Positions 4,689 through 37,840 of a DNA stretch of 64,000 bases are shown one piece after another. The notes under the pieces are model-generated. The model saw only the letters and a program-made list of their open reading frames with translations. It was not told the origin of the DNA and made no database searches. The stretch's first letter is position 1, and each line of letters begins with the position of its first letter. Source of the DNA: Escherichia coli. GTDB lineage: Bacteria; Pseudomonadota; Gammaproteobacteria; Enterobacterales; Enterobacteriaceae. Location of the stretch: the NCBI RefSeq assembly GCF_024700885.2, contig NZ_CP117016.1; one strand, 5' to 3'. The translations under genes were made by a program, and so were the position numbers.

Positions 4689-4964
4689 GTGGCTTCTGTT
4701 TCTATCAGCTGTCCCTCCTGTTCAGCTACTGACGGGGTGGTGCGTAACGGCAAAAGCACCGCCGGACATCAGCGCTATCTCTGCTCTCACTGCCGTAAAA
4801 CATGGCAACTGCAGTTCACTTACACCGCTTCTCAACCCGGTACGCACCAGAAAATCATTGATATGGCCATGAATGGCGTTGGATGCCGGGCAACTGCCCG
4901 CATTATGGGCGTTGGCCTCAACACGATTTTACGTCACTTAAAAAACTCAGGCCGCAGTCGGTAA
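4689..4964 (+). CDS. insA: IS1 InsA (transposition repressor)
   Basis: 91-aa [40 protein letters not shown]... recognised as IS1 InsA; GTG start. Confidence 0.95.
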
Positions 4965-5386
4965 CCTCGCGCATACAGCCGGGCAGTGACGTCATCGTCT
5001 GCGCGGAAATGGACGAACAGTGGGGCTATGTCGGGGCTAAATCGCGCCAGCGCTGGCTGTTTTACGCGTATGACAGTCTCCGGAAGACGGTTGTTGCGCA
5101 CGTATTCGGTGAACGCACTATGGCGACGCTGGGGCGTCTTATGAGCCTGCTGTCACCCTTTGACGTGGTGATATGGATGACGGATGGCTGGCCGCTGTAT
5201 GAATCCCGCCTGAAGGGAAAGCTGCACGTAATCAGCAAGCGATATACGCAGCGAATTGAGCGGCATAACCTGAATCTGAGGCAGCACCTGGCACGGCTGG
5301 GACGGAAGTCGCTGTCGTTCTCAAAATCGGTGGAGCTGCATGACAAAGTCATCGGGCATTATCTGAACATAAAACACTATCAATAA
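4883..5386 (+). CDS. insB: IS1 InsB frame; the transposase InsAB' is made by a -1 frameshift at the TTAAAAAACTC motif near 4936-4946
   Basis: 167-aa ORF matching InsB; A6C slippery motif present in the insA/insB overlap. Confidence 0.9.
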
Positions 5387-5638
5387 GTTGGAGTCATTAC
5401 CCAGTCTGTCGATGACATTACAATGCCAGGATGGGCTTTATCTTCACGTTGTGCTATCGCGGTGTGAGAGGTGCAACTGCCGCCAACGTTAGGTTATACT
5501 GTCATCTCACCGTGTAACTTAACGTGACAGTTACTAAGGGCGGATCACAATGGTAGAACTCCTAAGCAAATTAAATAGGTAACTGTTTAAGTTGCTGACA
5601 GAGAAGACTTTTTTGGTCTTCTCCACCTGGGGAGATTC

Positions 5639-5712
5639 TGGAGCGGGCGAAGGGAATCGAACCCTCGTATAGAGCTTGGGAAGCTCTCGTTCTACCATTG
5701 AACTACGCCCGC
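5639..5712 (-). tRNA. glyU: tRNA-Gly (anticodon CCC)
   Basis: Reverse complement reads GCGGGCGTAGTTCAATGGTAGAACGAGAGCTTCCCAAGCTCTATACGAGGGTTCGATTCCCTTCGCCCGCTCCA with encoded CCA. Confidence 0.95.
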
Positions 5713-5790: not shown

Positions 5791-6567
5791 TCAGCATTTT
5801 GGCTTGCTGCTCTGAGGCGGCAAGTAACGCAGCGGATCAATTGCCGTAGCACGGTAACGAATCTGGAAATGCAGGCGAACCGATGCCGCATCAGTGCTCC
5901 CCATAGTGGCGATTTTTTGCCCAGCCTTCACGCTTTGCCCATTATTTACCAGCATCGTGTCATTATGGGCGTAAGCCGTAATGTAATCTTCACTGTGTTT
6001 AATCATGATGAGATTACCGTAGCCACGCAGCTGGTTGCCCACATACACCACCTTTCCTGCACCCGCGGCGTAAATAGGTGTACCTCGTGGAGCTGAGATA
6101 TCAATCCCTTTATTGCCGCCATCAGCTGTCGAATACGGCATGATAACTTTCCCTGTCGTTGGCCATAACCAACAACGTTGCCCTACTGGCGGCCAGGAAG
6201 ATTTCGGTACTGCTGATGACGGTGTAACCGATGCGGTTTTGGTCGTTGATTTGGCGGTTGATTTACGTGTACTGCTACTTTTCGCCCCACCCAGTTTTAG
6301 TTTCTGACCAACTTCAATGGTGTAAGGGGGGGAAATGCCGTTCAGTCGCGCCAGCTCTTTTACGCTGGTTCCCGTGGTGCGCGAAATACGATATAGCGTA
6401 TCCCCCCGTTTCACGGTGTAAACGGAGCCGGAATACGTTCCTGTATCGGATGATTTGCTACCCGAGCAGCCCGCCAAAAGCAGTCCAACCGATAACAACA
6501 TCACGATACCCAGAGATTTTTTATTCAGGCGTCCCGCACTCAAAATCTTTCCTCGCTTAAAAAACAA
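5791..6567 (-). CDS. ygeR: LysM-domain / M23-family peptidase lipoprotein
   Basis: 258-aa ORF; lipobox LLLAGCSG; LysM motif (YTVKRGDTLYRISRTTGTSVKELARLNGI); M23 peptidase-like C-terminus. Confidence 0.85.
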   Translation of the reverse strand: MFFKRGKILSAGRLNKKSLGIVMLLSVGLLLAGCSGSKSSDTGTYSGSVYTVKRGDTLYRISRTTGTSVKELARLNGISPPYTIEVGQKLKLGGAKSSSTRKSTAKSTTKTASVTPSSAVPKSSWPPVGQRCWLWPTTGKVIMPYSTADGGNKGIDISAPRGTPIYAAGAGKVVYVGNQLRGYGNLIMIKHSEDYITAYAHNDTMLVNNGQSVKAGQKIATMGSTDAASVRLHFQIRYRATAIDPLRYLPPQSSKPKC

Positions 6568-6887
6568 GACGCCATATCATAGCAGCCAGCCTCTGGATAC
6601 CCAATCTCTTGCTTCTCGAAAAACGCGGTAATAGAGAAAGAGGTTAATTTCATTTGGCAAAGGGAAGTATCATCAGCAAAATATTCGCTGCAGAGGTATC
6701 GAATTTCCTGACTTTTTTACCCTATTTCCCATCCTGATGCGTAATAATCCTGATTTATCACATTGATTTTATCGCCACTCATATTGATACGTATCACTGC
6801 CCCTATTCAGAGTCCTGTTTCGTATCATATCTGTGTTTTTTTAACGTCATCACACTTCCTTCCTCCCCTAACGCTTATCGTCGTTTC

Positions 6888-6902
6888 TGGCGTAAATCTT
6901 GC
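6888..6902 (+). promoter_or_regulatory. candidate sigma54 (-24/-12) promoter for xdhA: TGGCGTAAATCTTGC
   Basis: GG and GC spaced as in the TGGCAC-N5-TTGC consensus; about 96 bp upstream of the xdhA start. Confidence 0.4.
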
Positions 6903-6997
6903 CTGCTTAGACTAAATCTTTGCCATAAGAACCAAATGTTCAAATCGAGGGGATTTCTATGGAAGCGCGGGAAGCAACCGCTACGGGTGAATCTTGC

Positions 6998-9256
6998 ATG
7001 CGCGTCGATGCCATTGCTAAGGTCACCGGGCGGGCACGATATACTGACGATTATGTTATGGCGGGCATGTGTTACGCGAAATATGTACGTAGCCCTATCG
7101 CACATGGTTATGCCGTAAGTATTAATGATGAACAAGCCAGAAGTTTACCAGGCGTACTGGCGATTTTTACCTGGGAAGATGTACCTGATATCCCATTCGC
7201 TACAGCTGGGCATGCCTGGACACTTGACGAAAACAAGCGCGATACCGCCGATCGCGCACTGCTAACTCGCCATGTTCGTCATCATGGTGACGCCGTTGCC
7301 ATCGTCGTGGCCCGTGATGAACTCACGGCAGAAAAAGCGGCGCAATTGGTCAGCATTGAGTGGCAAGAATTACCCGTTATCACCACGCCAGAAGCGGCGC
7401 TGGCAGATGACGCTGCACCAATCCATAACGGCGGCAATTTACTAAAACAAAGCTCGATGTCGACGGGTAATGTCCAACAAACAATCGATGCCGCCGATTA
7501 CCAGGTGCAGGGGCACTATCAGACGCCGGTCATTCAACATTGTCACATGGAAAGCGTGACATCGCTGGCATGGATGGAGGATGACTCGCGAATTACCATC
7601 GTTTCCAGCACCCAGATCCCGCACATTGTTCGCCGTGTGGTTGGTCAGGCGCTGAATATTCCCTGGTCATGCGTACGAGTCATCAAACCGTTTGTCGGTG
7701 GCGGTTTTGGTAATAAACAGGATGTACTGGAAGAGCCAATGGCGGCATTCCTGACCAGCAAGCTTGGCGGCATTCCGGTGAAAGTTTCCCTTAGCCGTGA
7801 AGAGTGTTTCCTCGCAACCCGTACCCGCCACGCTTTTACTATTGACGGGCAAATGGGCGTGAACCGCGACGGAACATTGAAAGGTTATAGTCTGGATGTT
7901 CTGTCTAACACCGGCGCTTATGCATCTCACGGGCACTCCATCGCTTCTGCAGGGGGGAATAAAGTCGCTTACCTTTATCCTCGTTGTGCCTACGCTTACA
8001 GTTCAAAGACCTGCTATACCAACCTCCCCTCGGCTGGTGCGATGCGTGGTTATGGCGCGCCACAAGTCGTATTTGCCGTTGAGTCTATGCTTGATGACGC
8101 CGCGACAGCGTTAGGTATTGATCCTGTTGAAATTCGTTTACGCAACGCCGCCCGCGAAGGAGATGCTAATCCGCTCACAGGCAAACGTATTTACAGCGCA
8201 GGGTTGCCGGAGTGTCTTGAAAAAGGCCGGAAAATCTTTGAATGGGAAAAACGCCGTGCAGAGTGCCAGAACCAGCAAGGCAATTTACGCCGCGGCGTTG
8301 GCGTCGCCTGTTTTAGCTACACCTCTAACACCTGGCCTGTCGGCGTAGAAATTGCTGGCGCGCGCCTGTTGATGAATCAGGATGGAACCATCAACGTACA
8401 GAGTGGTGCCACGGAAATCGGCCAGGGTGCCGACACCGTGTTCTCGCAAATGGTGGCAGAAACCGTGGGGGTTCCGGTCAGCGACATTCGCGTTATTTCA
8501 ACACAAGATACCGACGTTACGCCGTTCGATCCCGGCGCATTTGCCTCACGCCAGAGCTATGTTGCCGCGCCCGCGCTACGCAGTGCGGCACTGTTATTAA
8601 AGGAGAAAATCATCGCTCACGCCGCTGTCATGCTACATCAGTCAGCGATGAATCTTACCTTGATAAAAGGCCATATCGTGCTGGTTGAACGACCGGAAGA
8701 GCCGTTAATGTCGTTAAAAGATTTGGCGATGGATGCCTTCTACCACCCTGAACGCGGCGGGCAGCTCTCTGCCGAAAGCTCCATCAAAACCACCACTAAC
8801 CCACCAGCGTTTGGCTGTACCTTTGTTGATCTGACGATCGATATTGCGCTGTGCAAAGTCACCATCAACCGCATCCTTAACGTTCATGATTCGGGCCATA
8901 TTCTTAATCCGTTGCTGGCAGAAGGTCAGGTACACGGCGGAATGGGAATGGGCATTGGCTGGGCGCTATTTGAAGAGATGATCATCGATGCGAAAAGCGG
9001 CGTGGTCCGTAACCCCAATCTGCTGGATTACAAAATGCCCACCATGCCGGATCTGCCACAACTGGAAAGCGCGTTCGTCGAAATCAATGAGCCGCAATCC
9101 GCATACGGACATAAGTCACTGGGTGAGCCACCAATAATTCCTGTTGCCGCTGCTATTCGTAACGCGGTGAAGATGGCTACCGGTGTTGCAATCAATACAC
9201 TGCCGCTGACGCCAAAACGGTTATATGAAGAGTTCCATCTGGCAGGATTGATTTGA
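6998..9256 (+). CDS. xdhA: xanthine dehydrogenase, molybdopterin-binding subunit
   Basis: 752 aa from the Met at 6998 (MRVDAIAKVTGRARYTDDY...); GGGFGNK molybdopterin-hydroxylase motif; ORF-track N-terminal extension from 6959 rejected. Confidence 0.9.
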   Translation: MRVDAIAKVTGRARYTDDYVMAGMCYAKYVRSPIAHGYAVSINDEQARSLPGVLAIFTWEDVPDIPFATAGHAWTLDENKRDTADRALLTRHVRHHGDAVAIVVARDELTAEKAAQLVSIEWQELPVITTPEAALADDAAPIHNGGNLLKQSSMSTGNVQQTIDAADYQVQGHYQTPVIQHCHMESVTSLAWMEDDSRITIVSSTQIPHIVRRVVGQALNIPWSCVRVIKPFVGGGFGNKQDVLEEPMAAFLTSKLGGIPVKVSLSREECFLATRTRHAFTIDGQMGVNRDGTLKGYSLDVLSNTGAYASHGHSIASAGGNKVAYLYPRCAYAYSSKTCYTNLPSAGAMRGYGAPQVVFAVESMLDDAATALGIDPVEIRLRNAAREGDANPLTGKRIYSAGLPECLEKGRKIFEWEKRRAECQNQQGNLRRGVGVACFSYTSNTWPVGVEIAGARLLMNQDGTINVQSGATEIGQGADTVFSQMVAETVGVPVSDIRVISTQDTDVTPFDPGAFASRQSYVAAPALRSAALLLKEKIIAHAAVMLHQSAMNLTLIKGHIVLVERPEEPLMSLKDLAMDAFYHPERGGQLSAESSIKTTTNPPAFGCTFVDLTIDIALCKVTINRILNVHDSGHILNPLLAEGQVHGGMGMGIGWALFEEMIIDAKSGVVRNPNLLDYKMPTMPDLPQLESAFVEINEPQSAYGHKSLGEPPIIPVAAAIRNAVKMATGVAINTLPLTPKRLYEEFHLAGLI

Positions 9257-9266
9257 GGATAACATC

Positions 9267-10145
9267 ATGTTTGATTTTGCTTCTTACCATCGCGCAGCAA
9301 CCCTTGCCGATGCCATCAACCTGCTGGCTGACAACCCACAGGCCAAACTGCTCGCCGGTGGCACTGACGTACTGATTCAGCTCCACCATCACAATGACCG
9401 TTATCGCCATATTGTTGATATTCATAATCTGGCGGAGCTGCGGGGAATTACGCTAGCGGAAGATGGCTCACTACGTATCGGCTCTGCAACGACATTTACC
9501 CAGCTCATTGAAGATCCTGTAACTCAACGTCATCTCCCAGCGTTATGTGCTGCGGCCTCGTCCATTGCCGGACCGCAGATCCGTAACGTCGCTACCTACG
9601 GTGGAAATATTTGCAACGGTGCTACCAGTGCAGATTCTGCCACGCCAACGCTAATTTATGACGCGAAACTGGAGATTCACTCCCCGCGCGGTGTTCGTTT
9701 CGTCCCGATTAATGGCTTTCACACTGGGCCGGGCAAAGTGTCTCTTGAGCATGACGAAATCCTTGTCGCCTTTCATTTTCCGCCCCAGCCGAAAGAACAC
9801 GCGGGCAGCGCGCATTTTAAATATGCCATGCGCGACGCAATGGATATTTCAACGATTGGCTGCGCCGCACATTGCCGACTGGATAACGGCAATTTCAGCG
9901 AATTACGCCTGGCATTTGGTGTTGCCGCGCCAACGCCAATTCGCTGCCAACATGCCGAACAGACTGCACAAAATGCGCCATTAAACCTGCAAACACTGGA
10001 AGCCATCAGCGAATCAGTCCTGCAAGATGTCGCCCCGCGTTCTTCATGGCGGGCCAGTAAAGAGTTTCGTCTGCATCTCATCCAGACGATGACCAAAAAA
10101 GTGATTAGCGAAGCCGTCGCCGCGGCGGGGGGAAAATTGCAATGA
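9267..10145 (+). CDS. xdhB: xanthine dehydrogenase, FAD-binding subunit
   Basis: 292-aa ORF of the CO-dehydrogenase flavoprotein family; immediately downstream of xdhA. Confidence 0.9.
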
Positions 10146-10621
10146 ATCACAGCGAAACAATCACCATCGAATGCACCATTAACGGGATGCCTTTTCAGCT
10201 TCACGCCGCACCAGGCACGCCGCTCTCGGAATTACTCCGCGAACAAGGACTGCTAAGTGTCAAACAAGGGTGCTGCGTGGGTGAATGTGGTGCCTGTACG
10301 GTGCTGGTCGACGGCACAGCAATAGACAGTTGCTTATACCTTGCCGCCTGGGCTGAAGGAAAAGAGATCCGCACGCTGGAAGGTGAAGCGAAAGGCGGAA
10401 AACTTTCTCATGTACAGCAGGCTTATGCTAAATCCGGCGCAGTGCAGTGCGGGTTTTGTACGCCTGGCCTGATTATGGCTACCACAGCAATGCTGGCGAA
10501 ACCACGCGAGAAGCCATTAACCATTACGGAAATTCGTCGCGGACTGGCGGGAAATCTTTGTCGCTGCACGGGGTATCAGATGATTGTAAATACAGTTCTG
10601 GATTGCGAGAAAACGAAGTAA
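10142..10621 (+). CDS. xdhC: xanthine dehydrogenase, 2Fe-2S subunit
   Basis: 159-aa ORF with Cys clusters [11 protein letters not shown] and CGFCTPG; ATGA overlap with the xdhB stop. Confidence 0.9.
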
Positions 10622-10660: not shown

Positions 10661-12439
10661 TTATGTGTTTAACAACTCATATTTCTTAATCTTGCGATAG
10701 AGCGTAGCAATGCCGATGCCCAGTTCATCAGCAACTTGCTTCTTGCTGTTATGACGTGAAAGCGCCTCGCGGATCATTTGCTTTTCCATCTCCTCCAGCG
10801 CCGTGCCGCCCGCATCATCGAGTGCCAGGTGCGCCTCGTTGACCTCTGTTACATCACTTTGCTCCGTTGTGCCATTATTCAGCAGATTTGGCGGCAATAG
10901 CGTGCTGTCGATAACTTCACCTGAAGGAACCACGTTAACCAGATATTCCATCAAATTGCTTAACTCGCGCAGGTTTCCGGGCCAACGATGCTTACGCAAT
11001 ATTTCGACGACATCGGGAGCAATGCCCGGATAAACCGATCCCAGACGACGGGTATGCAGATGTAAAAAGTAATGCACCAGTAGTTCAATATCTTCCTGAC
11101 GTTCACGCAGCGGTGGCAGAGTTATCGGGATAACATTAAGTCGGTAGAAGAGATCTTCGCGGAATTTACCTTCGGCAATGAACTGGGCCAAATTCTGGTT
11201 AGTTGCAGAAATGATGCGAATGTCGACTTGTATTGGGCTACTGGCACCAATCGGCAGAATTTCACGCGCCTCAATAGCGCGCAGTAATTTAGCCTGCAAC
11301 ATTAATGGCATATCACCTATTTCATCGAGAAACAGCGTGCCCGTATTCGCCGCCTGAATCAACCCTGTTTTACCGTTGGCAGAAGCGCCAGTAAATGCGC
11401 CTTTAACATAACCGAACAGTTCGCTCTCCAGAAGCTGCTCCGGAATCGCGGCACAGTTGATAGCAATAAAGGGTTTATTCCGTCTTCCGCTCAACTTATG
11501 GATTGCACGGGCGACAACTTCTTTACCCGTGCCGCTTTCACCAACCACCATAACGCTGGATGGGCTGGGTGCAATACGGCTAATGAGTCGTTTTAATTGC
11601 CGCATAACACGGCACTCGCCAACCAATTGTTCAATATGCGGTTCATCAGGTGCATTTGCTACAGAAAAACTGGTATGCGATTGGTGAAACGCCATTAAAA
11701 ATAATTGTCGGCCCTGAATGTTATGCAATTGACCAATGATTAATTCACTTTTATCGTCCCACGAAACAATATGCTGCATATGTCCATGGGTAAAATTACT
11801 CTCAAATGTTAATGGTCTGAAACGGATAGGTTTCCCAATAATATTATTTTGTACAACACCAAGTGTTTTTAAGGCAGTCTGATTAACAAACTGAATCCGA
11901 TTATCGTCATCAACAACTAATACACCCTGATCCATATTATCGATCATGGTCGCGAATATTTTACTGATGTTATCTCCTGGTCCCTGATCCTCCAGAAGTT
12001 TCGAAACAAAAATGGTGGATATATGGCGAACGTAATCAGAAAATTCGCGTAAATTATCACTAATATGCTCTTGTTGCTCGTGGGTAACGGCAATCAAACT
12101 TATCACCCCAACACAACGATCCTGTAAAATGACAGGCGTACCCAGAAATGCTTTTTCGCGGCAATTTTCTTTACTATCGCAACCTTCGCAAAGGGGATCG
12201 AAGCGAGACTGTGTCACAACTTTTTCAGTTTTCGTTTCCAGGACGTGGCGGAGCAGGCGTGAGTTGCCGCTCAACTGGCGACCAAGAAACTTCCCATACG
12301 CGCCCGTTCCGGCGACGCGACACAAGTTTTCATCAACGATCTCAACCTCAAGCTGCAAAACGCTGGCAAGCATTCTGGCAAAACGCTGAATTGTCGGTTG
12401 AATTTGCATCAATACTGACTGCGTAGTAGCAAGCTCCAT
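10661..12439 (-). CDS. ygeV: sigma54-dependent transcriptional activator (bacterial enhancer-binding protein)
   Basis: 592-aa ORF with AAA+ Walker A GESGTGKE, the sigma54-contact motif GAFTGA, and a C-terminal helix-turn-helix. Confidence 0.9.
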   Translation of the reverse strand: MELATTQSVLMQIQPTIQRFARMLASVLQLEVEIVDENLCRVAGTGAYGKFLGRQLSGNSRLLRHVLETKTEKVVTQSRFDPLCEGCDSKENCREKAFLGTPVILQDRCVGVISLIAVTHEQQEHISDNLREFSDYVRHISTIFVSKLLEDQGPGDNISKIFATMIDNMDQGVLVVDDDNRIQFVNQTALKTLGVVQNNIIGKPIRFRPLTFESNFTHGHMQHIVSWDDKSELIIGQLHNIQGRQLFLMAFHQSHTSFSVANAPDEPHIEQLVGECRVMRQLKRLISRIAPSPSSVMVVGESGTGKEVVARAIHKLSGRRNKPFIAINCAAIPEQLLESELFGYVKGAFTGASANGKTGLIQAANTGTLFLDEIGDMPLMLQAKLLRAIEAREILPIGASSPIQVDIRIISATNQNLAQFIAEGKFREDLFYRLNVIPITLPPLRERQEDIELLVHYFLHLHTRRLGSVYPGIAPDVVEILRKHRWPGNLRELSNLMEYLVNVVPSGEVIDSTLLPPNLLNNGTTEQSDVTEVNEAHLALDDAGGTALEEMEKQMIREALSRHNSKKQVADELGIGIATLYRKIKKYELLNT

Positions 12440-12749
12440 AGCTTTACCTTCCAGACTTACTTAAAAGTCGATCATTGAAGACGTTGATGGTTCACAGATC
12501 ATGATGATATTAACTCAGGCGAAATTGGCTTTGATAAAAACATAAGATTTTTATCACTTTCTAATGAAATTATGGAAGAGATATCACATTTCTATATCAA
12601 TATGAGAATTACGGCGGTGAGTTTATCAAACTGAAGAGAGAGCGCCTGTTCCTTTATCTTATTTCTGATACTTAGCAGCAAATAAATAACGCGATAAAAA
12701 AAGCCAAACGTTTTCGTATTTTACAAACAACCAGAAGCTGGCATCAATT

Positions 12750-12765
12750 TGTGATCAACCCCACA
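12750..12765. promoter_or_regulatory. CRP-like site TGTGATCAACCCCACA upstream of ygeW
   Basis: TGTGA-N6-CCACA, 9 of 10 matches to the CRP half-sites TGTGA-N6-TCACA. Confidence 0.35.
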
Positions 12766-12808
12766 CATTACCCGTCAAATTAGTCTTTTGCAGCCGCTTG
12801 GATAATTC

Positions 12809-12823
12809 TGGCATAGTTATTGT
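12809..12823 (+). promoter_or_regulatory. candidate sigma54 -24/-12 element TGGCATAGTTATTGT upstream of ygeW
   Basis: GG at -24 spacing and TTGT in place of TTGC; about 90 bp upstream of the ygeW start. Confidence 0.3.
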
Positions 12824-12915
12824 TAGTCCCAGGTATAGCTGTGAAAAGACCAATCACTTTTGGCAAGTCACAGTGAAATAAACCTCTTTGCCTGTCATTC
12901 CACTACCGGGACTTT

Positions 12916-14163: not shown

Positions 14164-15360
14164 ATGTCCGTTTTCTCATTGAAGATTGATATCGCCGATA
14201 ACAAATTTTTCAACGGCGAAACATCACCGCTCTTTTCGCAAAGCCAGGCCAAACTGGCGCGCCAGTTCCACCAGAAAATTGCTGGTTATCGCCCAACACC
14301 GCTTTGTGCGCTGGACGATCTCGCAAACCTTTTTGGTGTGAAGAAAATTCTCGTCAAAGACGAATCAAAACGATTCGGTCTGAACGCCTTCAAAATGCTC
14401 GGCGGTGCGTACGCCATCGCTCAATTATTGTGTGAAAAATATCATCTTGATATCGAAACGCTGTCATTTGAGCATCTGAAAAATGCCATCGGCGAAAAAA
14501 TGACCTTCGCGACCACCACCGACGGCAACCACGGGCGCGGTGTGGCATGGGCAGCACAGCAACTCGGACAGAATGCGGTGATTTACATGCCGAAAGGTTC
14601 TGCTCAGGAACGCGTTGACGCCATTCTGAACCTCGGTGCCGAGTGCATCGTCACGGATATGAACTATGACGATACCGTTCGCCTGACCATGCAACACGCG
14701 CAGCAGCACGGCTGGGAAGTGGTGCAAGATACCGCCTGGGAAGGTTACACCAAAATCCCAACCTGGATCATGCAGGGCTATGCAACACTGGCAGATGAAG
14801 CCGTCGAGCAAATGCGTGAAATGGGCGTAACCCCGACGCACGTTCTGCTGCAAGCTGGTGTCGGTGCAATGGCCGGTGGTGTGCTGGGTTATCTGGTCGA
14901 CGTCTATAGCCCGCAAAATCTGCACAGCATTATTGTTGAACCTGACAAAGCTGACTGTATTTATCGCTCCGGCGTCAAAGGCGACATCGTCAACGTTGGC
15001 GGTGATATGGCCACCATCATGGCGGGCCTGGCCTGCGGCGAACCTAACCCGCTGGGCTGGGAAATCCTACGTAACTGCGCCACCCAATTCATCTCCTGCC
15101 AGGACAGTGTTGCCGCATTAGGTATGCGTGTGCTGGGTAATCCGTACGGCAATGACCCGCGCATCATCTCCGGTGAATCCGGCGCTGTCGGTTTGGGCGT
15201 TCTCGCAGCGGTTCATTATCACCCGCAACGTCAAAGCCTGATGGAAAAACTGGCGCTGAACAAAGATGCCGTAGTGCTGGTTATCAGCACTGAAGGCGAC
15301 ACAGACGTGAAGCACTACCGCGAAGTTGTCTGGGAAGGCAAACACGCTGTAGCACCTTAA
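14164..15360 (+). CDS. ygeX: PLP-dependent diaminopropionate ammonia-lyase
   Basis: 398-aa ORF; position after ygeW matches K-12 order; family assignment (Trp-synthase beta / serine dehydratase fold) is from memory of this gene, no specific motif checked. Confidence 0.85.
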   Translation: MSVFSLKIDIADNKFFNGETSPLFSQSQAKLARQFHQKIAGYRPTPLCALDDLANLFGVKKILVKDESKRFGLNAFKMLGGAYAIAQLLCEKYHLDIETLSFEHLKNAIGEKMTFATTTDGNHGRGVAWAAQQLGQNAVIYMPKGSAQERVDAILNLGAECIVTDMNYDDTVRLTMQHAQQHGWEVVQDTAWEGYTKIPTWIMQGYATLADEAVEQMREMGVTPTHVLLQAGVGAMAGGVLGYLVDVYSPQNLHSIIVEPDKADCIYRSGVKGDIVNVGGDMATIMAGLACGEPNPLGWEILRNCATQFISCQDSVAALGMRVLGNPYGNDPRIISGESGAVGLGVLAAVHYHPQRQSLMEKLALNKDAVVLVISTEGDTDVKHYREVVWEGKHAVAP

Positions 15361-15417: not shown

Positions 15418-16629
15418 ATGGCTAAGAATATTCCATTCAAACTGATTCTTGAAAAAGCAAAAGATTACCAGGCGGACATGACTCGCTTCCTGCGCGACAT
15501 GGTTGCTATTCCCAGTGAAAGCTGCGACGAAAAACGCGTAGTACATCGTATTAAAGAAGAGATGGAAAAAGTCGGCTTCGATAAAGTTGAAATCGACCCG
15601 ATGGGCAACGTTCTCGGTTATATCGGCCACGGCCCGCGTCTGGTGGCAATGGACGCTCATATTGATACCGTCGGCATTGGCAACATCAAAAACTGGGACT
15701 TCGATCCGTACGAAGGCATGGAAACTGATGAGCTGATCGGTGGTCGCGGTACTTCCGACCAGGAAGGCGGCATGGCATCTATGGTTTATGCCGGTAAAAT
15801 CATTAAAGACCTCGGTCTGGAAGATGAATATACCCTGCTGGTTACCGGTACTGTGCAGGAAGAAGACTGCGACGGTCTGTGCTGGCAGTACATTATTGAA
15901 CAATCCGGCATTCGCCCGGAATTTGTGGTCAGTACCGAACCAACCGACTGCCAGGTATACCGTGGTCAGCGCGGTCGTATGGAAATTCGTATTGATGTTC
16001 AGGGTGTTAGCTGCCACGGTTCTGCGCCAGAACGCGGTGACAACGCCATTTTCAAAATGGGTCCGATTCTTGGCGAATTACAAGAACTCTCCCAACGTCT
16101 GGGTTATGACGAATTCCTCGGCAAAGGCACCCTCACCGTTTCTGAAATCTTCTTCACATCCCCAAGCCGTTGCGCTGTAGCAGATAGCTGCGCCGTCTCT
16201 ATTGACCGCCGTCTGACCTGGGGCGAAACCTGGGAAGGCGCGCTGGACGAAATCCGCGCCCTGCCTGCAGTACAGAAAGCTAACGCGGTTGTTTCTATGT
16301 ACAACTACGACCGTCCGTCCTGGACTGGCCTGGTTTACCCAACCGAATGCTACTTCCCGACCTGGAAAGTGGAAGAAGATCACTTCACCGTTAAAGCACT
16401 GGTGAATGCCTACGAAGGTCTGTTTGGCAAAGCGCCGGTTGTTGATAAGTGGACCTTCTCAACTAACGGCGTATCTATCATGGGCCGTCACGGCATTCCG
16501 GTGATCGGCTTTGGCCCAGGTAAAGAACCTGAAGCGCATGCACCTAACGAAAAAACCTGGAAATCTCACCTGGTGACCTGTGCCGCGATGTACGCGGCAA
16601 TCCCGTTAAGCTGGCTGGCAACCGAATAA
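15418..16629 (+). CDS. ygeY: M20-family metallopeptidase / amidohydrolase
   Basis: 403-aa ORF; position between ygeX and hyuA matches K-12 order; M20 (ArgE/DapE) family assignment is from memory, no specific motif checked. Confidence 0.85.
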
Positions 16630-20760: not shown

Positions 20761-21531
20761 CTAATTCACAAATCTGCGCGCGATTGCAGGATGTTCTTGT
20801 ATATCGCCCAGCCAGATTGCCTCTACGTCGTGTTGTTGCAGCGGTTGAAGGAGCTCGCTTTGTGCAATCGCATTCTCACATTGAGAAAAACGGTTAATGA
20901 ACCAGACTCGCCGACAACCTTGCGGTACGTTTTTAAATGCGCCCTGAGGGTGGCGAACCAGCGCAACGAGATCGCTCAGTTGCAAGGTTGCATCAGGTGT
21001 TAACCCGGTAATATCAGCAAACTGCGACCAGCGATGGACATTTTCTGTGCTCACTTTCGCGCCCAAAATATGTCCTCCCATCACAGCAATCACGCAGCAA
21101 CTGCTTTTGGGTATGCAAGGTTCGTGCTCATCAGGCGCTTTTAACGTCATTCCACGCGAGCCATCTGCCTCAATGAGAATTACGTCACACTCTGGTCGTT
21201 GCACCAGTGCATCAATCGCTTCTGGCGTAAATCCCTGCACTTTTCCCTGGTTCGCTTTCCAGCTGTGAAAACAAAATGAAATGGGGGATGTAAGAGACGC
21301 ATGAGGAAGCATGGCGGGATCACGACAGAAAACCACGGGCCAGTGAGACGTTGGCATAAACATATGTGTCGTCGTAGTGATTAACACACGCCTGCCGCTA
21401 GCCTGGAGCAGTTCTGCCAGCCAAAAAAGCAAGCTGGTTTTCCCCCCAGCCCCAACAACAGAAATCACAGTGGGACGTTTCTGCGCGCCTAAATCAATGA
21501 ATAATGCCGATGGGTCAACTATACTTTTCAC
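20761..21531 (-). CDS. yqeC: selenium-dependent molybdenum hydroxylase system protein (YqeC family)
   Basis: 256-aa ORF with P-loop-like VVGAGGKTS; synteny. Confidence 0.75.
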   Translation of the reverse strand: MKSIVDPSALFIDLGAQKRPTVISVVGAGGKTSLLFWLAELLQASGRRVLITTTTHMFMPTSHWPVVFCRDPAMLPHASLTSPISFCFHSWKANQGKVQGFTPEAIDALVQRPECDVILIEADGSRGMTLKAPDEHEPCIPKSSCCVIAVMGGHILGAKVSTENVHRWSQFADITGLTPDATLQLSDLVALVRHPQGAFKNVPQGCRRVWFINRFSQCENAIAQSELLQPLQQHDVEAIWLGDIQEHPAIARRFVN

Positions 21532-22212: not shown

Positions 22213-22366
22213 AAAATGTAGTTAAACGATTGCGTTCAAATATTTAATCCCTCCAGCACTCTTTATCATAATGATAAGGAATCACTGATTTTGAGAAAAG
22301 AGAAAAAGTGATAAATGGGCTGGCAATAATAATTTTCAGGAGTGATTTTAATTCTCATTTGGCACC

Positions 22367-22382
22367 TGTGAGTTCATTCACA
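22367..22382. promoter_or_regulatory. CRP binding site TGTGAGTTCATTCACA upstream of ygfK
   Basis: Perfect match to both CRP consensus half-sites TGTGA-N6-TCACA. Confidence 0.55.
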
Positions 22383-22436: not shown

Positions 22437-22452
22437 TGGCAAGAGTGGTGCG
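22437..22452 (+). promoter_or_regulatory. candidate sigma54 -24/-12 element TGGCAAGAGTGGTGCG upstream of ygfK
   Basis: GG-N10-GC spacing correct; about 80 bp upstream of the ygfK start. Confidence 0.3.
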
Positions 22453-22533
22453 ATTGTTGCTCTATCCCCCTAAACCACCGGATTTCTCAACACCGGTCAC
22501 TCAATGATATCTGTATAAGCTAAGGAGAGGGTT

Positions 22534-37405: not shown

Positions 37406-37756
37406 TTGCATCCCTTTCATTTAATGAGTTATGTCTTCTCAAATTTCGCGATGCAATAAATGGGCATATATTAGGTAGCATGGCCGATTTAATTATAATT
37501 TTGCGACTGAGTTCAAATTATTGCCCCTCAATCTGTGCCGCTTTCATTATTTCAACATTGCCGACCAAAAGAGATCTAACCAGATAAAAACGATTAAATA
37601 CGAGAGTGCGACATGCCAGAATGATTAATGAAATATCAATATGAGAAAATTACAGATAATTCCATTGTCAGGTTCTCTTCTCATTTTCGTGGTTTAACCA
37701 CGATTATGTGATTGCCTCCGCAATTCCTGTCTCTAACTCCCCTTCCTCGCAAAAAC

Positions 37757-37771
37757 TGGCACTCCACGAGC
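37757..37771 (+). promoter_or_regulatory. candidate sigma54 -24/-12 element TGGCACTCCACGAGC upstream of uacT
   Basis: Perfect TGGCAC at -24 and GC at the -12 position; about 70 bp upstream of the uacT start. Confidence 0.35.
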
Positions 37772-37840
37772 ATGTGTTTAGACAGTTTCATTAACGTAAA
37801 CGGTTGCTTTTTACTCTGGCGAGCGAAAGGAGAAACACTG

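Follow-up and report, generated by a model that had tools for sequence, protein, structure and literature searches.

Locus and gene order

The analysed window, a 64,000-nucleotide stretch of an Escherichia coli chromosome, matches E. coli chromosomes at up to 100% identity. The RefSeq gene order of the best-matching chromosome runs from yqeG, yqeH, IS1, tRNA-Gly, actS, xdhABC, ygeV (on the opposite strand) and ygeW to dpaL (ygeX), ygeY, hyuA, arcC, yqeB, yqeC, mocA, ygfK, ssnA, ygfM and xdhD, and from there through xanQ, guaD, ghxQ, ygfS, ygfT and uacT onward to serA. The strain is not K-12, and its xdhA spacer is 97.6% identical to that of K-12. An IS1 element and a tRNA-Gly gene (4689-5712) directly separate yqeH from actS. 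At this position K-12 has a much longer yqe/yge block (ETT2-remnant genes), relative to which a deletion or replacement at IS1 appears to have taken place in the window strain.

The xdh-ygf cluster constitutes the anaerobic purine/urate degradation pathway of gut bacteria, recently connected with the urate homeostasis of the host and with gout (2025 pathway paper, PMC12507026; Liu et al.). The features at its xdhA end are as follows.

6887-6903, plus strand: sigma-54 -24/-12 element of xdhABC, the 17-mer CTGGCGTAAATCTTGCC, with GG at 6889-6890 and GC at 6901-6902
6959-9256, plus strand: xdhA (open reading frame and RefSeq annotation), in the operon served by the promoter at 6887-6903
9267-10145, plus strand: xdhB (open reading frame and RefSeq annotation); the xdhABC operon occupies 6959-10621
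10142-10621, plus strand: xdhC (open reading frame and RefSeq annotation)
10661-12439, minus strand: ygeV, an enhancer-binding protein with a PAS-like N-terminus, an AAA+ domain and a C-terminal HTH_8

The sigma-54 element upstream of xdhA

The promoter of xdhA is already known: it is published and recorded in EcoCyc, and because of that entry the flagged promoter itself adds nothing new. Zhao et al. (2010, PMC2831329) listed 'tttcTGGCGTAAATCTTGCCTGctta' for xdhA and found that its expression rose 4.9-fold with sigma-54 overexpression; in their microarray data the rpoN deletion had a modest effect, a 2.1-fold decrease. In the ChIP-seq study of Bonocora et al. (2015, PMC4591121), the K-12 site is OS29 (FAT 11, PSSM 10.9) and is flagged as experimentally confirmed in EcoCyc. 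The 17-mer at this published K-12 site is identical to CTGGCGTAAATCTTGCC and lies at the same place relative to xdhA, so the non-K-12 strain of the window carries the promoter without difference. The RpoN gSELEX list of Shimada et al. (2021) contains the ygeV/ygeW spacer; xdhA is absent from that list.

A preliminary description of the window, made from its sequence, had placed a -24 (GG) and a -12 (TTGC) element at the correct sigma-54 spacing, and the letters at 6888-6902 confirm this. On the plus strand, TGGCGTAAATCTTGC fits TGGC-N7-TTGC, which is GG-N10-GC, with TGGCGT and TTGC separated by AAATC. It is the single match to the TGGC-N7-TTGC core on both strands of the 64 kb, where shuffled sequences give 4.6. 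Scoring with a position weight matrix (PWM), as had been proposed, was performed with a matrix derived from 38 intergenic, sense-oriented ChIP-seq motifs (Bonocora et al. 2015), all of which lie outside this locus. The xdhA 17-mer scored 12.0 (rank 5 of 127,968 positions), which is within the range of the 38 real sites, although in the lower quartile of their leave-one-out scores (5.0-20.3, median 15.4). The element reads TGGCGT and so departs from the consensus TGGCAC at two positions (G for A and T for C). About eight scores of this kind (at least 12.0) are expected per 128 kb of first-order Markov sequence; hence, the motif match alone is not above chance, and the case for the promoter rests on its context, that is, on position and conservation. 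The element is intergenic, co-oriented with xdhA and near it. A sigma-70 consensus scan upstream of xdhA returned one weak match, 280 bp upstream, which did not exceed the shuffle expectation.

Conservation of the promoter and of the start codon

Besides E. coli, xdhA loci from Citrobacter, Kluyvera, Klebsiella, [Enterobacter] lignolyticus, Yokenella, Morganella, Edwardsiella, Hafnia, Aeromonas and Serratia were compared. The upstream neighbour gene of xdhA varies among these genera. In each of the 10 other genera, the best sigma-54 match in the spacer scored between 10.2 and 15.1 and was co-oriented with xdhA, with the element starting 56-95 bp before the called ATG. When the loci were aligned, GGCG (6889-6892) and TTGC (6899-6902) proved invariant in all 11 genera, from Escherichia to Aeromonas, against a mean column identity of 44% in the flanking spacer. 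The 414-bp xdhA spacer has 32 variable columns when five divergent E. coli strains are compared, and only one of them falls inside the 17-mer, at 6896, a degenerate spacer position that is occupied by A or T. Position and conservation, and not motif counts, are decisive here: 6888-6902 is a real sigma-54 promoter of xdhABC, of which the comparison provides independent proof.

The same alignment corrects the start codon of xdhA. The ATG at 6959 and the Shine-Dalgarno sequence preceding it are invariant in the 11 genera, and the PGAP annotation also starts at 6959, which is 39 bp upstream of the K-12-style ATG at 6998. The latter is kept in the closest genera and is not conserved in Morganella, Edwardsiella, Hafnia, Aeromonas and Serratia. 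Translation from 6959 gives a protein of 765 aa, and that from 6998 one of 752 aa. Since the ATG at 6959 is the conserved start, the -12 element ends 57 bp before xdhA; the distance of about 96 bp given originally counts from 6998 and cannot be retained. Transcription is predicted to start near 6914 (motif centre plus 19, by the convention of Bonocora et al.), which would leave about 45 nt of leader ahead of the ATG at 6959. The 84 bp that Bonocora et al. counted from the predicted start to the K-12 ATG corresponds to 6914 to 6998 in the window.

Other sigma-54 elements in the cluster

In the same cluster, Bonocora et al. (2015, PMC4591121) reported the ChIP-seq sites OS30 (ygeW), OS31 (ygfK), OS32 (ygfT) and IS34 (within yqeC). 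Together with a candidate element upstream of uacT, the elements are the following.

12808-12824, plus strand: sigma-54 element of ygeW(XY...), CTGGCATAGTTATTGTT, PWM score 14.9, the top match in the window, with TTGT as the -12 element
21114-21130, minus strand: published intragenic sigma-54 site within yqeC, TGAGCACGAACCTTGCA, IS34, FAT 7, PWM score 9.6, pointing towards yqeB
22445-22461, plus strand: sigma-54 element of ygfK-ssnA-ygfM-xdhD, GTGGTGCGATTGTTGCT, PWM score 12.0, rank 6, in the register of Bonocora et al.
37452-37468, minus strand: published weak sigma-54 site of ygfT, TATGCCCATTTATTGCA, OS32, FAT 3, PWM score 6.3
37756-37772, plus strand: candidate sigma-54 element of uacT, CTGGCACTCCACGAGCA, PWM score 7.4, with a canonical -24 element and the atypical -12 element GAGCA

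The preliminary description had noted similar but weaker elements upstream of ygeW (12809), ygfK (22437) and uacT (37757), which hold up to different degrees. The ygeW element is present, but by sequence it is stronger than that of xdhA (14.9 versus 12.0), though its ChIP occupancy (OS30, FAT 3) is below that of xdhA (Bonocora et al. 2015, PMC4591121). It is conserved in seven genera: six other Enterobacterales have CTGGCACA(C/G)TTATTGTT, and Morganella has TTGGCATGCTTATTGTT. At ygfK, where the ChIP-seq site OS31 has a FAT of 26 (Bonocora et al. 2015, PMC4591121), the presence of a sigma-54 element stands while its position has to be moved. Two registers overlap there, TGGCAAGAG from 22437 (the preliminary description and Zhao 2010) and GTGGTGCGATTGTTGCT from 22445, and in an alignment with Enterobacter sp. 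Bisph1 and Kluyvera only the register from 22445 is conserved. The register from 22437 was rejected, as its GG is lost in Enterobacter sp. Bisph1.

The uacT element is likewise conserved, with a low score (7.4) and an atypical -12. Its counterparts at the same place are CTGGCACTGCCTAAGCA in Raoultella and the canonical CTGGTCTGAATTTTGCT (score 13.6) in Morganella. In the parts of the published ChIP-seq tables available to us it is not listed. This comparative support for a non-canonical promoter makes it plausible that uacT is transcribed from an element with an atypical -12. The published sites of ygfT, on the opposite strand, and of yqeC were missing from the preliminary description; the -12 part of the ygfT site is kept in Raoultella.

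A shared upstream dyad

A search for an inverted repeat common to these upstream regions, which had also been proposed, gave a positive result. The dyad T(A/C)TCA-N3-TGA(T/G)A is found at xdhA, ygeW, ygfK and ygfT/uacT, about 110-215 bp upstream of the promoters. Its copies in the spacers, to which no strand is assigned, are listed below.

6756-6768: dyad A, second candidate YgeV enhancer site, TATCACATTGATT, 131 bp upstream of the xdhA 17-mer
6777-6789: dyad B, candidate YgeV enhancer site, ACTCATATTGATA, 110 bp upstream of the xdhA 17-mer
12497-12509: weaker second dyad of the ygeV-ygeW spacer, GATCATGATGATA
12595-12607: dyad of the ygeV-ygeW spacer, TATCAATATGAGA, 213 bp upstream of the ygeW 17-mer
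22264-22276: dyad upstream of ygfK, TATCATAATGATA, a perfect palindrome and the top dyad match in the window, 181 bp upstream of the 17-mer
37634-37646: dyad of the ygfT-uacT spacer, TATCAATATGAGA, upstream of both elements, at 178 bp from that of ygfT and 122 bp from that of uacT

Upstream of xdhA, the 11-genus alignment contains the conserved blocks TATCAnAATGAT (6756-6768) and CTCAtnnTGATA (6777-6789), 21-22 bp apart. Dyad B lies 109-111 bp from the 17-mer in most orthologous xdhA loci, and the five E. coli strains have no SNP in either dyad. In the 64 kb, the exact 12-mer TATCAATATGAG is present four times (6778 minus, 12595 plus, 15656 minus and 37634 plus) where 0.008 copies are expected; the xdhA, ygeV-ygeW and ygfT-uacT spacers account for three of these copies.

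A symmetrised 13-bp dyad matrix was trained only on 18 xdhA sites from outside E. coli. Its four best matches in the window are 22264 (score 19.9), 37634 (18.1), 12595 (18.1) and 6777 (16.1), and these coincide exactly with the four intergenic regions that have sigma-54 ChIP peaks. Eight matches in the window score at least 14, compared with 0.58 expected. At a threshold of 12, nine of the ten matches lie between 6545 and 37840 and the tenth in the adjacent actS; 14 kb of additional flank contained no match of at least 12. The matrix scan gave no dyad upstream of the yqeC site at 21114-21130. Sites outside the training set behave similarly: in seven genera, a dyad precedes the ygeW element by 213-217 bp; in Enterobacter sp. 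Bisph1 and Kluyvera, one precedes ygfK-type elements by 161-183 bp, and in E. coli and Raoultella, one precedes the uacT element by about 120 bp. The dyad-to-promoter distances of 110, 122, 131, 178, 181 and 213 bp have no common helical phase.

High-scoring copies are also found within coding regions, at 14440-14452 (ygeX), 15655-15667 (ygeY) and 20874-20886 (yqeC), and the ygeX-internal copy recurs in Citrobacter (L082, 17492) and Klebsiella (L084, 17582). These may be internal activator sites or coincidences of coding sequence.

The dyad extends beyond the Enterobacterales. Three Clostridial loci encode YgeV-like proteins (35-39% identity) adjoining xdh or uricolytic genes. They contain strong -24/-12 elements, such as TTGGCACAAGTTTTGCT, 64 bp before ygeX in Sedimentibacter, and the dyads TATCAATATGATA, TATCATATTGATA and TATCAAAATGATA, mostly 120-190 bp upstream of the -24/-12 elements. 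Each locus has three or four dyad matches scoring at least 15, where about 0.4 would be expected in locus-specific Markov sequence. The near-consensus -24/-12 elements and the dyads lie at 11850-12150 in L006, at 5812-6016 and 17085-17222 in L004, and at 8033-8064 in L008, and TATCA-N3-TGATA there adjoins ygeX/ygeW, uacT-like and other genes. A paralog locus of Citrobacter werkmanii gave no dyad match. Judged by sequence comparison, the pairing of promoter and dyad suggests a regulatory module, and a candidate enhancer motif, conserved across phyla. We lean towards the view that the dyad is the recognition site of the YgeV family and that, with the -24/-12 promoter, it would form a module kept with anaerobic purine/urate genes from Clostridia to Enterobacterales. 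At xdhA, the dyad is probably the YgeV binding site and enhancer. The searchable literature contains no mention of the dyad or of a YgeV binding site, and, as far as it can be searched, the dyad as a candidate YgeV enhancer is possibly new.

The YgeV activator

That the cluster encodes its own sigma-54 activator was rightly stated from the beginning. The translation of ygeV contains a Walker A motif (GESGTGKE), the sigma-54 contact motif GAFTGA of the AAA+ domain, a Walker B motif (FLDEIGDM) and a C-terminal helix-turn-helix (HTH), and precomputed Pfam assignments for identical and orthologous proteins give PAS_8, Sigma54_activat, AAA_lid_14 and HTH_8. Citrobacter, Klebsiella, E. lignolyticus and Yokenella share the order xdhABC, ygeV (opposite strand), ygeW, and Morganella has it with small insertions. 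Within 10 kb of xdhA, no ygeV-like gene was found in Kluyvera, Edwardsiella, Hafnia and Serratia (L083, L088, L089 and L091, about 9750-9960 in each), where the promoter and the dyads are kept. In these four genera, the xdhA activator must have its gene at another place or be another protein.

A locus search based on YgeV returned mostly paralogous AAA+ activators, besides one proteobacterial ortholog (L003) and the Clostridial homologs; a protein homology search with YgeV gave near-identical E. coli entries only. From E. coli to Aeromonas, the HTH segment LGIGIATLYRKI does not differ, and two of the Clostridial proteins have it in identical form. Comparison of the C-terminal HTH did not separate orthologs from paralogs: because it is nearly the same in paralogs that lack a dyad nearby, the HTH sequence offers no explanation of specificity.

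It had been suggested that xdhA and the other operons form one YgeV/sigma-54 regulon, and the genes in question are those of the YgeV iModulon of Lamoureux et al. (2023), which comprises 13 genes (xdhABC, ygeWXY, hyuA, ygfK, ssnA, ygfM, xdhD, ygfT and uacT). This iModulon is defined by co-expression only, and no operator was given; the candidate dyad would supply the missing cis element. A ygeV mutant had reduced ygfT expression (Iwadate & Kato 2019, as related by citing papers including Lamoureux et al. 2023), and Liu et al. observed strong induction of ygfK and ygfT by urate. In the literature as far as it is searchable, direct dependence on YgeV is reported for ygfT only and was not found for xdhA.

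CRP-like and other regulator boxes

The 2025 pathway paper (PMC12507026) assigned the pathway enzymes, mentioned glucose repression and a native CRP site in the ygeV-ygeW spacer, and stated that the regulation of these genes 'remains poorly understood'. Three CRP-like boxes, again without an assigned strand, are located in the window.

6839-6854: CRP-like box upstream of xdhA, TTTTAACGTCATCACA, two mismatches to TGTGA-N6-TCACA
12750-12765: CRP-like box upstream of the ygeW promoter, TGTGATCAACCCCACA, one mismatch
22367-22382: perfect CRP core between the dyad and the ygfK promoter, TGTGAGTTCATTCACA

At xdhA, ygeW and ygfK, these boxes sit between the dyads and the sigma-54 elements. Within the xdhA box is a TCAC(A) block (6850-6854), 37 bp upstream of the 17-mer, of which TCAC is invariant in the 11-genus alignment; ygfK has TCACA at the same 37-bp offset, within a box of two mismatches. 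The ygeW box has a counterpart in Enterobacter sp. Bisph1. The candidate boxes agree with the reported glucose repression, and we infer that CRP binds them; they may be the basis of this repression at the sigma-54 promoters. No convincing site was found when the region was checked against the IHF consensus.

Overlapping dyad B, an FNR-like sequence TTGATACGTATCAC (6784-6797) has one mismatch to TTGAT-N4-ATCAA and includes the perfect palindrome TGATACGTATCA. This sequence lacks conservation in the other genera and looks specific to E. coli.

Proposed mechanism and alternative explanations

We are confident, short of certainty, that xdhABC, the xanthine dehydrogenase operon, has its sigma-54 (RpoN) promoter at 6887-6903, which YgeV would activate from the upstream dyads. 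Sigma-54 RNA polymerase would occupy the GG (-24) and GC (-12) elements and be held there as a closed complex. YgeV, encoded immediately downstream of xdhABC on the opposite strand, would assemble as a hexamer on the dyads at 6756-6768 and 6777-6789, 110-131 bp upstream, and DNA looping, with the conserved CRP-like TCACA box between the dyads and the promoter, would bring it to the polymerase. ATP hydrolysis and the GAFTGA loop of YgeV would then open the promoter, and transcription would proceed from near 6914 through the leader of about 45 nt to the ATG at 6959. The signal would presumably be urate or a related metabolite, under anaerobic and glucose-poor conditions. The binding of YgeV to the dyad, its activation of xdhA, the effector, the part played by CRP and the precise start site are inferences. 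The module is repeated at ygeW, ygfK and the ygfT/uacT spacer, and one activator would thus switch on the whole purine/urate cluster.

A regulator other than YgeV, for example a repressor or a global factor, might bind the conserved dyad while YgeV acts at a different, unrecognised sequence. The dyad sequence is rich in A and T, with a loose likeness to Fur-type GATAAT repeats, copies of it lie within ygeX, ygeY and yqeC, and the HTH of YgeV is not diagnostic. However, a YgeV-like gene is a regulator seen beside the dyad in the inspected loci of both Enterobacterales and Clostridia, the dyad is always about 110-215 bp upstream of a -24/-12 element, which is a typical enhancer position, and about 46 kb of unrelated flanking chromosome contained no dyad match. 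We therefore regard another occupant of the dyad as unlikely.

The promoter could also be real and respond to a different enhancer-binding protein, for instance to NtrC under nitrogen limitation, with YgeV acting only at the ygeW, ygfK and ygfT operons. Purine catabolism releases nitrogen, an NtrC gSELEX peak lies within xdhB/xdhC, a direct experiment on ygeV and xdhA was not found in the literature, and the four genera mentioned above keep the xdhA promoter with no ygeV within 10 kb. Yet the region upstream of xdhA contains no NtrC-type TGCACC-N5-GGTGCA sequence closer than five mismatches, the dyad is common to xdhA and the other promoters of the cluster, and xdhABC is co-regulated with the other operons in the YgeV iModulon, which renders this alternative quite improbable. 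The site might also reflect poised or non-productive sigma-54 binding, with xdhABC transcribed mainly from another, sigma-70 promoter. Bonocora et al. (2015, PMC4591121) cautioned that sigma-54 binding is no proof of productive transcription, and many of the ChIP-seq sites are not known to fire. The effect of rpoN on xdhA is just 2.1-fold, and the position of the CRP-like box, some 60 bp ahead of the predicted start, would fit a class I sigma-70 promoter as well. Nevertheless, the sole sigma-70-like match is the weak one 280 bp upstream, at shuffle level, whereas the -24/-12 bases do not vary among 11 genera and keep a fixed distance to the start codon, with which a non-functional site is hard to square. 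This explanation is accordingly very improbable, and activation of a functional sigma-54 promoter by YgeV is the reading that we prefer.

Comparison with known systems and significance

A cluster-encoded, effector-sensing enhancer-binding protein that lacks a receiver domain is familiar from FhlA and the formate regulon (hycA-hypA, fdhF and hydN), where FhlA drives several sigma-54 promoters, including a divergent pair, each with upstream activator sites. YgeV resembles FhlA in being a cluster-encoded activator that has no receiver domain and in serving, as proposed here, several sigma-54 promoters. The two differ in that the effector of FhlA is formate and its upstream activating sequence is a different one, and the FhlA promoters are nearer to the consensus (PSSM 12-14 versus 10.9 at xdhA). 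The arrangement at xdhA also resembles that of NtrC at glnAp2, with -24 GG and -12 GC elements, tandem candidate dyad sites 100-140 bp upstream and looping-dependent activation, which is proposed for YgeV. Unlike NtrC, which has a phosphorylatable receiver, YgeV has PAS-like sensory domains, and its candidate dyad T(A/C)TCA-N3-TGA(T/G)A is distinct from TGCACC-N5-GGTGCA of NtrC.

The candidate dyad, the CRP boxes and the corrected registers amount to a cheaply testable map of YgeV, sigma-54 and catabolite control of the cluster. If the reading of the dyad is true, it would define the complete YgeV regulon, including the non-canonical uacT promoter. In the 2025 pathway paper, the native ygeV-ygeW control region was swapped for constitutive promoters to obtain expression; a YgeV operator would be of use in understanding or re-engineering urate degradation by gut bacteria. 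The weaker dyad GATCATGATGATA of the ygeV-ygeW spacer (12497-12509, score 13.8) precedes the start codon of ygeV by about 60 bp and could serve YgeV autoregulation.
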